Virus record (IMG/VR): IMGVR_UViG_3300020045_007949
Coordinates: 1 to 64,000 of that record
Origin: a virus
Taxonomy: Duplodnaviria; Caudoviricetes
Length of the DNA stretch: 64,000 bases
Reading direction: 5' to 3' (one strand)
The notes beneath the pieces were generated by a model. That model saw nothing but the letters and a program-made list of their open reading frames with translations, ran no database searches and was not told the origin of the DNA. The number at the start of each line of letters is the position of its first letter. Position 1 is the first letter of the stretch. Both the position numbers and the translations under genes were made by a program. Shown here one piece after another: positions 987-28,222 of the stretch.

Positions 987-1438
987 AGCTCAGTATTTAA
1001 AGATTCCTTTTCAAATTCACTCTCTGATAAAACCTCCTTCATCTTAGATAAATAACTATTCATTATCTCATCTTGGCTTATACTGTGGTCGTTTTCTTTA
1101 TATTCTAAACCACCTCTTAAAATGTGGTCAAGTATTTCGGGTTTATTCCTCATCTTCAAAATCTGCTTTAATGTTGGTCTATACCAAACACCGTGAACAA
1201 TCAAATCAGGTGCTATGTCTTTGTAAAATGTACTTCTCGCCATGTTTCCACAAAACCTGCAAGTAAACATCATTGGCGTGACTCCTGCATCAATATCTTG
1301 TGTCTTAGTAATACGATTACATTTAGTGCAGTAATAACAGTTTATCCTATTTTCAAGGTCAATTTTGTAGAAATTATTTTTAGCAACATCTTTCAATAGA
1401 GCCTCATACTTTCTTACAACCTCTCTTTGACTTATCAT
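983..1438 (-). CDS. Zn-ribbon-containing protein
   Basis: CYYCTKC and CRFC motifs. Confidence 0.7.
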   Translation of the reverse strand: MISQREVVRKYEALLKDVAKNNFYKIDLENRINCYYCTKCNRITKTQDIDAGVTPMMFTCRFCGNMARSTFYKDIAPDLIVHGVWYRPTLKQILKMRNKPEILDHILRGGLEYKENDHSISQDEIMNSYLSKMKEVLSESEFEKESLNTEL

Positions 1439-3834: not shown

Positions 3835-4100
3835 ATTAATCAAGTTTTACAGATACAATGAAAATGATAAATAGTATTATTATAAATGCTGTCATAAAAT
3901 TACATCTATAATATTTGTTTTATTCTTTGTGGTCGAGCGAAGACTTTGCTTATCTATACCTTTAGAATATTTACCCATTTTCTTATTAATAATAGCCTGT
4001 AAGTGAATAGAAGTATCTACTTCTACTTTATTGGTATTCATTTTATATATATTTATGTAAAATTAACTATTCAAAAACTGCACACAAAAAGATACCCTAT

Positions 4101-4412: not shown

Positions 4413-5087
4413 CTATACTACCACTTCTACTTTTTCCTTAAAGGTTATCTTATTATATTTCTGTACGAATACAGAACCCTTAAAGAATCTTGAATGTTGT
4501 GGTATAACCTCATTCTCTCTTGCAAAGATAAATTCAGAGTAAGAATAGTTTGGCAACTGTTCATATATAGGCTCAATATTTATGATGCCTCTATTCTGCA
4601 TACTATGCAAATACCTCGAACCGCTTGAATGACTTTTTAGACCGAAAAAAGAAGCTGCCTTTTTATTGCCCATACCTTGATAAGATACAGAAGGGATTTT
4701 CTTTTTGGATTGGTGGTTAAGAAAGTTTTCGTGCTTCGCAAGTTGATTGCTTAGTGCAAAATCTCTAATTTCTAATTTAGCTTCTTTTACTGTCCGTGAT
4801 TTGAAAACTAAAATACGATTACGCTTGACTTTGAAAGAGCCGTTTTCGTTTTCAATCTTTTTATAAGGATTGTCCCATAATAATTTGCGGACAGACGTGA
4901 AGATGATTCGTTCATTTTCTATGCGTACTAAGCCCGTTGAGATTAGACTTATTAGATGTTCGCATAAACTATTTCTTGAACATTGTATTCTCTGAGCAAA
5001 GTCAGTTTTATTTAGCTTTTCATAATTCAATACACTACCTTTCAAAGCAATATAGTATGCCAAAGAAACACGATGGTCTCTCAGCAT
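4413..5087 (-). CDS. winged-helix DNA-binding protein, possibly replication-initiator-like
   Basis: DFAQRIQCSRNSLCEHLISLISTGLVRIE wHTH pattern; track start 5147 lies inside the leader hairpin, so ATG 5087 preferred. Confidence 0.55.
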   Translation of the reverse strand: MLRDHRVSLAYYIALKGSVLNYEKLNKTDFAQRIQCSRNSLCEHLISLISTGLVRIENERIIFTSVRKLLWDNPYKKIENENGSFKVKRNRILVFKSRTVKEAKLEIRDFALSNQLAKHENFLNHQSKKKIPSVSYQGMGNKKAASFFGLKSHSSGSRYLHSMQNRGIINIEPIYEQLPNYSYSEFIFARENEVIPQHSRFFKGSVFVQKYNKITFKEKVEVVV

Positions 5088-5983: not shown

Positions 5984-6056
5984 GAGCGATGGCGGAAGTC
6001 GAATCCGCTATTTAAAGGTTATGAGCCTTTCGAGTAAACCGTTTCTCTCCATCGCA
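5984..6056 (-). tRNA. tRNA with CAT anticodon (Met/fMet/Ile2 unresolved)
   Basis: AAAGG-CT CAT AA-CCTTT; 1:72 mismatch; T arm GCGGA-TTCGACT-TCCGC. Confidence 0.85.
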
Positions 6057-6060
6057 CTGC

Positions 6061-6132
6061 TCACCTAAACAGGAGTCGAACCTGTACCCATCCAGTTTGT
6101 AGCCAAATGTTCTACCATTGAGTTATTAGGGA
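6061..6132 (-). tRNA. degenerate tRNA, apparent anticodon ACA (Cys-like)
   Basis: Canonical T arm ACAGG-TTCGACT-CCTGT; anticodon loop CT ACA AA; weak D and acceptor stems. Confidence 0.6.
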
Positions 6133-26676: not shown

Positions 26677-27084
26677 ATGAAAAGTTTAATTTTAGCTTTC
26701 TTTTTATTAATTTCAAGTTTGACATTTGCTCAGACAAATCCTGCGACGAACTTTGTACCTGCTTTAGATACATTAACAAATGCTGGCACAGCACCATTGA
26801 CAAAACTCTTGGTTGCACCTTATTCGACCGTAACAGTACAGGTAAAGGTAACTAAGATTTCGGGAACAGTTGGTGGAACAGTAACTTTAACAGGTAGTAT
26901 CGACGGAAGTATTTATTATGCTATTTCGGGTGCTTCCTCATTGACGCTTACTGATACTGCAACGCAAGGAACAATTTGGATTGTAACAGGAAACCCTTAT
27001 AGTTATTACAAAGTCTTGGGTACAGGAACAGGAACTATGGCAGCTTCAATATCAGCAAAAGTTCTGCCGAGAAAGAATTTCTAA
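26677..27084 (+). CDS. secreted or exported beta-rich protein
   Basis: Signal peptide MKSLILAFFLLISSLTFAQ; Thr/Gly-rich. Confidence 0.75.
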   Translation: MKSLILAFFLLISSLTFAQTNPATNFVPALDTLTNAGTAPLTKLLVAPYSTVTVQVKVTKISGTVGGTVTLTGSIDGSIYYAISGASSLTLTDTATQGTIWIVTGNPYSYYKVLGTGTGTMAASISAKVLPRKNF

Positions 27085-27095
27085 GTAGCCTACAC

Positions 27096-27135
27096 AAAAA
27101 AATCCGTATAGTTTTGTCATTGTGCGGATTTTTTT
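27096..27135 (+). terminator. intrinsic terminator
   Basis: AAAAAAATCCGTA/TGCGGATTTTTTT. Confidence 0.75.
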
Positions 27136-27146
27136 ATTTAAAAACA

Positions 27147-27178
27147 TTTGGAATTTAATTTTATTAGTACTACATTTG
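27147..27178 (+). promoter_or_regulatory. promoter of the leader and tRNA array 2
   Basis: TTTG-N20-TACATTTG; predicted +1 near 27183. Confidence 0.8.
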
Positions 27179-27182
27179 TGAC

Positions 27183-27245
27183 ATGAAAAACATTTCTCTA
27201 CATACTCAACGCCAACTACCGCAAAATTTATTTGAGGAGTGCTGA
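27183..27245 (+). CDS. putative leader peptide MKNISLHTQRQLPQNLFEEC
   Basis: ATG at predicted +1; 8 of codons 6-14 are CNN; stop 25 nt before the terminator. Confidence 0.65.
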   Translation: MKNISLHTQRQLPQNLFEEC

Positions 27246-27269
27246 CTATGTATTGAATTTCAATATTAG

Positions 27270-27309
27270 AAAATGGCTTCTCATTAATTTGAGAAGCCAT
27301 TTTTATTTT
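27270..27309 (+). terminator. attenuator terminator upstream of tRNA array 2
   Basis: Perfect 14-bp stem AAAATGGCTTCTCA/TGAGAAGCCATTTT, then TATTTT. Confidence 0.85.
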
Positions 27310-27311
27310 AA

Positions 27312-27387
27312 CTATCGGTGGAGGAGTCAGCCCGTCCTCGCCTGTCTTGGACACAGGAGTTCGCAAGTTGGAATCTTGCTCGATAGA
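27312..27387 (+). tRNA. tRNA-Pro(TGG)
   Basis: CTATCGG/TCGATAG, CCTGT-CT TGG AC-ACAGG, T arm GCAAG-TTGGAAT-CTTGC. Confidence 0.85.
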
Positions 27388-27443
27388 CGATTAAGACTGT
27401 TATTAATTCATAGGTCGTGTGTAGATGCGTAGAATTAAATTAT

Positions 27444-27515
27444 TTCGGATTGTTGTAATGGTTAGCAAATTTGTTTTTGAAGCAAATAGTTGGGGTTCAA
27501 ATCCCTAATCCGAAT
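27444..27515 (+). tRNA. tRNA-Gln(TTG)
   Basis: TTCGGAT/ATCCGAA, TTTGT-TT TTG AA-GCAAA. Confidence 0.9.
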
Positions 27516-27516
27516 C

Positions 27517-27585
27517 TAAGGCGTAGTTTAATTAAAACGACTTTTATGGGGAGAGTTGATATAGGTGAGAATCCTGTCTCTTTTA
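27517..27585 (+). pseudogene. degenerate tRNA-Pro(TGG)
   Basis: Cloverleaf with mismatched acceptor, loop TA TGG GG (A33), T loop TGAGAAT. Confidence 0.6.
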
Positions 27586-27588
27586 CAT

Positions 27589-27660
27589 GGTGTTATTACG
27601 CTAAAGGTAGGCGGATAGATTGTGAATCTATTGGTAACGGTTCGACCCCGTTATAATACC
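27589..27660 (+). tRNA. tRNA-His(GTG)
   Basis: G-1:C73 signature, ATAGA-TT GTG AA-TCTAT. Confidence 0.92.
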
Positions 27661-27666
27661 CTAAAA

Positions 27667-27741
27667 GGCGATATGATGCAAATGGAAGACATAGGATACT
27701 TAGAATATCCTTTTTTAAAGGTTCAAATCCTTTTATCGTCA
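27667..27741 (+). tRNA. tRNA-Leu(TAG) with short variable loop
   Basis: GGCGATA/TATCGTC, GGATA-CT TAG AA-TATCC. Confidence 0.85.
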
Positions 27742-27742
27742 C

Positions 27743-27816
27743 AATTTTATAGTTTAACGGAAAAACAGCCAAATACGAATTGGCAGACGATTGTTCGATT
27801 CAGTCTAAAATTACCA
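27743..27816 (+). tRNA. tRNA-Arg(ACG), CCA encoded
   Basis: AATTTTA/TAAAATT-A-CCA, GCCAA-AT ACG AA-TTGGC. Confidence 0.88.
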
Positions 27817-27852
27817 ATATAGCCAAGACTCATATATTGGCTATATCTTTTT
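27817..27852 (+). terminator. terminator closing tRNA array 2
   Basis: ATATAGCCAA/TTGGCTATAT plus CTTTTT. Confidence 0.75.
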
Positions 27853-28222
27853 CTATTAGTGAATAAATCTTTTCTGTAATCCAACCATTCAAATAACAAT
27901 ACGCTTCTTGCGGTGAAACTGTATAATCTATTCCAAGTCTTTCGCACACAAAGAATGTGGCGTGACTAATTTCGTGACTCAAAGTTGATTTCCAAGAATA
28001 AGAGTCTAAATATCTATCTGTATTTATTATGATTAATCCATGATGATTATGGCAATACCAACTATCTGCATAAAACTCAGACAATTCGTCTTTCAATGTA
28101 GCCATTAATAAGTCATTGGGTCTATATTTTTCAAACACAAAATCGCATATTTCATTAGGATTATTATGAACTGAAAATACAAACTGTATTGGGTAAATTT
28201 CACTCTTAAAAGTTTGTAACAT
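27830..28222 (-). CDS. HExxH metallopeptidase-like protein
   Basis: HEISH followed by QEAYCYL; start moved to ATG 28222. Confidence 0.65.
   Translation of the reverse strand: MLQTFKSEIYPIQFVFSVHNNPNEICDFVFEKYRPNDLLMATLKDELSEFYADSWYCHNHHGLIIINTDRYLDSYSWKSTLSHEISHATFFVCERLGIDYTVSPQEAYCYLNGWITEKIYSLIEKDIANI

Follow-up and report, generated by a model that had tools for sequence, protein, structure and literature searches.

A phage tRNA array with A37 in all five decoders of the CNN codon row: a possible backup set that does not depend on TrmD

The stretch of DNA described here, which we call the window, is 64,000 nucleotides long and is part of a 74-kb IMG/VR virus record (IMGVR_UViG_3300020045_007949). 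It contains a small array of tRNA genes, at positions 27312-27816, whose five intact members decode the CNN codon row, one per amino-acid box (Leu-CUN, Pro, His, Gln and Arg-CGN). All five have A37, whereas the corresponding tRNAs of Flavobacteriales have G37, the residue that TrmD methylates to 1-methylguanosine (m1G37). We think it quite possible, and hold tentatively, that the array is a backup set, induced on demand and independent of TrmD and m1G37. The uniform G37 of the host tRNAs, the conservation of the A37 array in Cellulophaga phage phi19:1 and an apparent attenuator in front of the genes all favor this reading. An earlier, sequence-only reading had proposed a backup set that is independent of TrmD and m1G37 or resistant to a G36-G37 nuclease, and had added a host defence or stress that attacks m1G37 tRNAs; no support was found for the attack or for such a nuclease.

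The tRNA array

The tRNA genes were called with ARAGORN and cross-checked against Rfam family RF00005, which has a gathering score of 29 bits (Table 1). The anticodon loops read ctTGGac (Pro), ttTTGaa (Gln), ttGTGaa (His), ctTAGaa (Leu) and atACGaa (Arg). A TrmD substrate has G37 after G36; in each of the five array tRNAs G36 is present and the next residue is A. The ARAGORN coordinates and the loop readings thus agree with the earlier observation that the intact tRNAs have A37 and that a degenerate tRNA-Pro keeps G37. The array had also been described as made only of CNN decoders. This holds for 27312-27816 but not for the whole record, which has tRNAs for Glu, Ala and Met, an odd "Cys-ACA" and a Leu(UAA) with G37 elsewhere. 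If five boxes were drawn from about 23, the CNN set would be expected about once in 33,600 draws and any single first-letter row about nine times in 10,000.

Four of the five tRNAs (Gln, His, Leu and Arg) pass the RF00005 gathering score. The Pro gene, which ARAGORN does call, has no match to this family even at E<=10. It has the bacterial tRNA-Pro marks C1-G72 and A73, and compared with its closest relatives (in contigs L022, L017 and L026) it has a paired change, G19 to C in the D loop and C56 to G in the T loop, that would keep the tertiary pair of the elbow. For these reasons we take it to be a functional, if atypical, tRNA, judging from its sequence. The decayed Pro-like copy exactly fills the gap between the Gln and His genes; it has no Rfam match and is missed by ARAGORN at the default threshold.

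Table 1. Features of the tRNA cassette and its borders, in window coordinates
Feature	Position	Strand	Basis	Details
Terminator-like hairpin	27101-27136	+	Read from sequence	Followed by T run; closes upstream ORF 26677-27084 and would insulate the cassette
Bacteroidota-type promoter	27147-27178	+	Sequence	TTTG (27147-27150), 20 nt, TAcaTTTG (27171-27178); ends 5 nt before leader ATG
Leader ORF	27183-27245	+	Translation	20 codons, ATG at 27183
Candidate antiterminator	27233-27283	+	RNA fold	27233-27240 (last leader codons) pairs with 27276-27283 (terminator 5' arm)
Intrinsic terminator	27269-27309	+	Terminator scan (27269-27304)	15-bp stem with 6-nt loop, then T run; ends 3 nt upstream of tRNA-Pro
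tRNA-Pro(UGG)	27312-27388	+	ARAGORN	A37; 77 nt, long D loop, T loop TTGGAAT
tRNA-Gln(UUG)	27444-27516	+	ARAGORN; Rfam 59.2 bits	A37
Decayed tRNA-Pro-like copy	27517-27586	+	ARAGORN -ps80 only	Loop taTGGgg (G37, A33); acceptor mismatches
tRNA-His(GUG)	27590-27661	+	ARAGORN; Rfam 56.3 bits	A37; encoded G-1 (27589) opposite C73
tRNA-Leu(UAG)	27667-27742	+	ARAGORN; Rfam 45.0 bits	A37; 76 nt, without long variable arm; A73
tRNA-Arg(ACG)	27743-27816	+	ARAGORN; Rfam 55.6 bits	A37; CCA end encoded
Hairpin with T run	27817-27853		Read from sequence	10-bp stem; closes the cassette; overlaps stop of convergent HExxH ORF
ORF, open reading frame.

Position 37 in the host

Bacteroidota genomes were found with a 16S probe sequence, and about 40 genomes drawn evenly from Flavobacteriales were surveyed with the Gln, His, Arg-ACG, Pro and Leu-UAG genes of one Flavobacteriaceae genome as queries. 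The complete tRNA set of that Flavobacteriaceae genome has G37 in 9 of 9 CNN decoders and A37 in all 29 other tRNAs. The survey gave the same picture: G37 is present in 161 of 161 CNN decoders (Gln 31/31, His 32/32, Arg-ACG 31/31, Pro 32/32, Leu-UAG 33/33, the last being 83-85 nt long, and Leu-CAG 2/2), and the non-CNN tRNAs that neighbor them have A37 in 48 of 48 cases. Not one of the 65 host Pro and Leu(UAG) genes has A37. These counts indicate that the host does not already use A37, an outcome that had been named beforehand as one that could refute the proposal, and the Gln and His counts bear out the earlier claim that these tRNAs have G37 in Bacteroidota.

TrmD is encoded in both of the Flavobacteriaceae genomes checked (PF01746, 184 bits) and is absent from the phage record. 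Presumably, the host CNN decoders, whose genes are present in one or two copies each in the Flavobacteriaceae genome, depend on this enzyme for m1G37. In sequence, the array corresponds exactly to the G36-G37 tRNA class of the host, with each member lacking G37. The anticodon loops differ from those of Flavobacteriaceae at position 37 in all five tRNAs, at position 38 in four and at position 32 in two. Over their full length the array tRNAs are only 43-56% identical to their Flavobacteriaceae counterparts, which rules out a recent capture from the host.

Separately, 11 atypical tRNA genes are clustered closely on a Flagellimonas chromosome (L187, G001:C1:2620200-2621300), with position 37 swapped: G37 occurs in Leu-UAA and Phe, A37 in Gln and T37 in Glu. 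The cluster also includes two Leu tRNAs of 75 nt, and it resembles a phage-type or mobile array.

The same cassette in Cellulophaga phage phi19:1

Phage phi19:1 (KC821607, Assiduviridae) is a cultured phage with a complete 57-kb genome and exactly five tRNAs. They occur in the order Pro-Gln-His-Leu(UAG, 75 nt)-Arg(ACG), as in the window, and all five have A37. The two arrays share the same five anticodons, a short Leu(UAG), a Pro-Gln spacer of 55-57 nt and homologous leaders; that of phi19:1 (H.QR.LPQ; H I Q R L P Q P) is also followed by a terminator and an antiterminator. They differ in that phi19:1 has no decayed Pro copy, its Gln-His spacer being 6 nt, and in that its cassette lies before structural genes, while the window cassette lies beside an exonuclease gene. 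The GenBank entry annotates only Gln, His, Leu and Arg and says nothing on A37 or the leader; we place the unannotated tRNA-Pro (UGG, A37) at KC821607 31057-31131 (L470).

The tRNA bodies of the two cassettes are only 43-65% identical, with the Arg copy at 65% and most stems rewritten. The anticodons, A37 (10 of 10 tRNAs), the gene order and the length of the Pro-Gln spacer have been kept. Because A37 is present in spite of this low identity, it must have been retained through a long divergence, and as evolutionary evidence this suggests that the CNN set and its A37 state are both under selection. A scan with the D arm of the Arg-ACG gene gave 88 contigs, among which only phi19:1 has the whole cassette. 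No Arg-rich leaders were found before lone Arg tRNAs in these contigs.

The leader and its attenuator

The promoter in Table 1 resembles the TTTG/TAnnTTTG sequence that we take to be the Bacteroidota consensus, and the leader ORF is probably translated from a leaderless transcript. Leader codons 6-14 encode L H (T) Q R Q L P Q. Eight of these nine belong to the CNN row, and each of the eight has a decoder among the five tRNAs of the array. The minimum free energy fold of the terminator region has a z-score of -6.0 relative to shuffled sequences. When the nascent RNA was folded with the leader occupied and the 3' arm of the terminator absent, the antiterminator fold had an energy of -14.9 kcal/mol; the analogous pairings have -20.5 kcal/mol in L022 and -21.5 kcal/mol in phi19:1.

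The match between leader codons and downstream anticodons was evaluated by permuting leaders and arrays over 93 arrays (1830 shuffled pairings). The scores of the window and of two unrelated phage contigs, L022 and L223, are above all 1830 shuffled pairings. In the 366-kb jumbo phage L022, a TAcaTTTG box identical to that of the window precedes the leader (~3894-4060, minus strand); this leader encodes L Q H P Q H Q P Q and lies upstream of a Pro-His-Pro-Gln-Gln array. The L223 leader (~4906-5068, plus strand) encodes Q Q Q Y Q P Q P Y P, lies upstream of Tyr-His-Pro-Gln genes and is preceded by a sigma-70-type promoter. Both leaders are followed by an intrinsic terminator, and a copy of the terminator 3' arm lies inside each leader ORF.

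The window therefore has the parts of a known attenuator: a short codon-matched ORF, and a terminator with a mutually exclusive antiterminator that involves the 3' part of the ORF. We infer that the leader is a codon-matched attenuator that regulates the array, and such control would fit a backup set that stays off until CNN decoding stalls. No description of leader-peptide control of tRNA genes was found in the literature searched.

Two other contigs deserve mention. In L253 (~1002-1250, minus strand), three tRNA-Lys genes are preceded by a short ORF whose last codons are five for Lys and then one for Arg; it may be a further codon-matched leader, although its score is weak. The L014 array (Pro, Leu-UAG, Gln, His and Met, all with A37) has no evident leader ORF.

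Position 37 in other phages

The 17-nt anticodon arm of the Pro gene, including A37, recurs on nine other phage tRNA-Pro genes that have very different bodies. The Leu(UAG) genes that neighbor these nine are also short and also have A37. We count this recurrence in favor of TrmD independence, since from sequence comparison the A37 Pro anticodon arm seems to be under selection.

To set these cases in context, we used an IMG/VR sample that was not chosen on position 37 (119 contigs, L196-L314, with 861 tRNAs). A37 is present in 12 of 85 Pro(UGG) genes (14%) and 12 of 28 Leu(UAG) genes (43%), and the decoders of ANN codons almost always have A37. All CNN decoders have A37 in 2 of the 21 contigs that hold at least four of them. 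G37 is present in 11 of 20 Phe(GAA) and 9 of 39 Leu(UAA/CAA) genes; bacterial tRNA-Phe has A37, a site of 2-methylthio-N6-isopentenyladenosine. Phage T5 (L466) has A37 in Leu(UAG) and G37 in Phe and Pro, and T4 has G37 in Pro.

Short Leu(UAG) genes of 75-77 nt, without the long variable arm, make up 11 of the 28 in this sample and are also present in the window (27667-27742) and in L014, L019 and L031. A37 is present in 8 of the 11 short genes versus 4 of the 17 long ones. An exact Leu anticodon-arm pattern has no match in IMG/VR.

A possible mechanism

We suggest that the segment 27147-27853 could be a self-contained phage tRNA operon with one decoder per CNN box. Since every phage copy has A37, TrmD cannot methylate them and the methylation should not be needed. 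The enzymes that make N6-isopentenyladenosine at position 37 require A36, and those that make N6-threonylcarbamoyladenosine require U36, so that A37 after G36 is not a site for either. The phage tRNAs lie outside all three substrate rules and should be usable as transcribed.

Transcription from the Bacteroidota-type promoter would first cross the leader with its cluster of CNN codons. If these are decoded quickly, the ribosome would reach the stop codon and cover the antiterminator strand, the terminator would form and no tRNAs would be made. If decoding stalls, the antiterminator would form instead and the five A37 tRNAs would be transcribed; these would restore decoding, and the operon would be shut off again. 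The stall could occur because the host tRNAs are too few, undermodified or damaged. Candidate triggers include a shortage of TrmD or S-adenosylmethionine (SAM) for a burst of new tRNA, a fall in m1G37 during infection, and nuclease cleavage.

A laboratory precedent exists for the central element of this scheme. E. coli deficient in trmD evolved A37-bearing tRNA-Arg(CCG) genes that were recoded to read CGG, and the authors noted that A37 tRNA-Arg genes would be unaffected by m1G37 deficiency (PMC8643618).

If the scheme is correct, the leader attenuates, the tRNAs are charged and used, and independence from TrmD and m1G37 would be the selected property. A broader version would be an autoregulated "m1G37 bypass" in phages of Flavobacteriia, and probably in others, in which the CNN leader monitors the TrmD-dependent host tRNAs and their failure releases the full A37 set. 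We regard the broader version as rather doubtful.

Several observations weigh against a TrmD-independent backup set. A37 in Gln, His and Arg(ACG) is ordinary in enterobacteria and is the majority state in phage tRNAs; only in Pro and Leu(UAG) is it unusual everywhere. The tRNA-Gln of phi19:1 is 82-85% identical, over about 60 nt, to the tRNA-Gln of phages of Proteobacteria and Actinobacteria. For these two reasons, three of the five A37s (Gln, His and Arg-ACG) could be inherited from a pan-phage tRNA pool that crosses bacterial phyla. Furthermore, many phages, T5 among them, have switched Leu(UAG) to A37 and yet keep G37 in Pro. Across contigs, the state of position 37 in Pro shows no significant linkage to that in Leu (Fisher p = 0.43). 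A37 turns up widely in the Pro and Leu tRNAs of phages, and frequently it is not a phage-wide state.

The Leu(UAA) tRNA of the same phage is another difficulty. It lies outside the window (G000 69446-69519; L008 1500-1574, minus strand), is 75 nt long without the long variable arm, and has the loop gtTAAgc. Hosts have A37 here, and the phage G37 is thus the reverse of the switch in the array. This suggests that what is avoided is broader than TrmD alone and takes in the chemistry or recognition of position 37 in the host.

As for the leader, C-rich short ORFs are common generally (3.3 expected per 35 kb) and their raw count upstream of arrays is not above background; the significant feature is the match of the leader to the anticodons of its array and not C-richness as such. 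Close relatives of the phage do without the cassette (see below). E. coli prolyl-tRNA synthetase prefers m1G37, and unless its flavobacterial counterpart behaves differently, charging of an A37 tRNA-Pro may be poor. Finally, the backup reading supposes that TrmD or m1G37 becomes limiting in infected Flavobacteriia.

Alternative explanations

One alternative is evasion of anticodon nucleases. The phage copies would be resistant replacements, as proposed for the tRNAs of T5 and mycobacteriophages, and the attenuator would sense the cleavage of host tRNAs. We judge this unlikely to be the explanation, and treat it as a real rival because the loops differ from those of the host at positions 38 and 32 as well as 37 and because Leu(UAA) has made the reverse switch. 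Relative to Flavobacteriaceae, the array tRNAs have what is expected of nuclease-evading tRNAs, namely the host anticodon in a changed loop, and the changes are of the kind discussed in PMC10264068. A demand-sensing leader would also suit a sudden loss of host tRNA, and G37 in Leu(UAA), together with the frequent G37 in phage tRNA-Phe, suggests a general escape from recognition at position 37. However, a single nuclease that hits five anticodons would have to read mainly G36-G37, and to our knowledge no nuclease specific for such tRNAs has been described, although host genomes were not searched for one. Position 37, the A37/G37 difference and TrmD are not mentioned in PMC10264068, nor is position 37 covered in a 2026 review of viral tRNA modification.

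The array might also be a plain supplement for the rarest codon class, with A37 being a tolerated, inherited state of the phage tRNA pool that has no special function. CNN codons are the scarcest row in the AT-rich Flavobacteriia, the tRNA genes for them are mostly single-copy, and an attenuator is equally suited to simple control of supply. The majority A37 state of Gln, His and Arg(ACG) in phage tRNAs and the resemblance of the phi19:1 tRNA-Gln to those of distant phages fit this explanation as well.

Codon usage argues against it. CNN codons make up 11.5% of the phage codons (10.8-12.1% per gene block), compared with 12.9% in ORFs of generic low-GC Flavobacteriales, which served as a proxy and are not the true host. 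CUA and CGU/C/A are lower in the phage than in the proxy, and CCA, CAA and CAC are slightly higher. With a CNN share below that of the proxy and no gene block enriched in CNN codons, codon compensation is ruled out as the main cause. Nor does simple supplementation explain why 10 of 10 tRNAs have A37 in two cassettes that differ at about half of the other positions, or why A37 is missing from the host Pro and Leu(UAG) genes. A37 is not correlated with tRNA GC content; the A37 and G37 phage tRNAs have equal GC and the window Pro gene has 56%, values that rule out AT drift too. On balance we find supplementation an improbable account of the array.

The weakest proposal, that A37 and the changed 32-38 pairs tune frame maintenance or wobble, for example for deliberate +1 shifts at CCN or CGN codons, has in its favor the statement in a review that m1G37 suppresses +1 frameshifting, but it is very improbable because the change is common to five different tRNAs, which argues for a general property and not for one recoding site, the ORF map of the window is ordinary, and no frame-broken genes or conserved shift sites, which were not specifically searched for, turned up there.

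The phage and the surroundings of the cassette

The only nucleotide matches of the phage among cultured phages are Cellulophaga phages. It encodes a BT4734-like primase and has promoter boxes of the Bacteroidota type. These three features place it among the phages of Flavobacteriia, near Assiduviridae.

Three close relatives (L011-L013) were found through the exonuclease gene that neighbors the cassette. In L012 and L013 homology to the window ends at 27135, and about 21 bp replace the cassette (27136-27829). L011 has no tRNAs at the cassette site. Since close relatives lack it, the cassette is an accessory module.

An ORF of about 130 amino acids with an HExxH metalloprotease motif adjoins the array (27830-28222, minus strand; phrog_1365, no Pfam match). 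Its homolog is present in the tRNA-less L011, and so this ORF is not tied to the cassette. Pfam and PHROG scans indicated no tRNA-related function among the neighboring ORFs, an upstream ORF of 360 amino acids had no match in IMG/VR, and NinG had none in bacterial genome contigs.

Elsewhere in the window, a "Cys" tRNA with the anticodon ACA (A34) lies at 6061-6132 (minus strand). Its Rfam score is 33.8 bits and its D stem is weak. It adjoins a Met(CAU) gene (5984-6056) that ARAGORN misses at default settings.

Significance and comparison with known systems

Most bacteria cannot live without TrmD, and the enzyme is a target for antibiotics. If the array is a TrmD-independent backup set, it would be a natural five-tRNA module that removes the need for this enzyme, and would reveal to what extent translation can do without m1G37. 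It would also suggest that m1G37 status changes during infection and that methylation of position 37, through TrmD or the supply of SAM, is a contested point between phage and host. Likewise, leader-peptide attenuation of tRNA genes would then be a device of phages in general, given the codon-matched leaders of L022 and L223 and the weaker Lys-rich ORF of L253. The cassette offers a concrete and testable case for the 50-year-old question of why phages carry tRNAs, as its content tracks a modification class of the host and not codon usage, and as it seems to bring its own sensor of decoding capacity. The cassette is also found in phi19:1, which is in culture together with its host Cellulophaga baltica.

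Phage tRNAs with altered anticodon loops and attenuation by leader peptides are both already known, and the cassette is a variant of these. Among phages, T5 Leu(UAG) and several IMG/VR arrays likewise have A37 for the bacterial G37 and a short, class-I-like Leu(UAG). Most of these phages have switched only some of their CNN decoders, while the window array has switched all of them, as one regulated unit and against a uniform G37 background in the host. The nuclease-evading phage tRNAs of van den Berg et al. (eLife 2023, PMC10264068) and those of T5 are also phage copies of host tRNAs with changed anticodon loops and were read as backups for damaged host tRNAs. In the present array, the common change is at position 37 across a whole codon row and removes a modification site.

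The trmD-deficient E. coli of Clifton et al. (NAR 2021, PMC8643618) is similar in that a CNN decoder with A37 in place of G37 escapes the need for m1G37. That case involved laboratory evolution and one bacterial tRNA, whereas the cassette is a natural set of five phage tRNAs with its own regulation. The regulatory region has the same parts as the trp, his, leu and pheST attenuators of enterobacteria: an ORF with regulatory codons, an intrinsic terminator and an antiterminator that overlaps the end of the ORF. It differs from them in that the regulated genes are tRNAs and not biosynthetic or synthetase genes, in that the codons of five amino acids would be sensed at once, and in that the promoter is of the Bacteroidota type.

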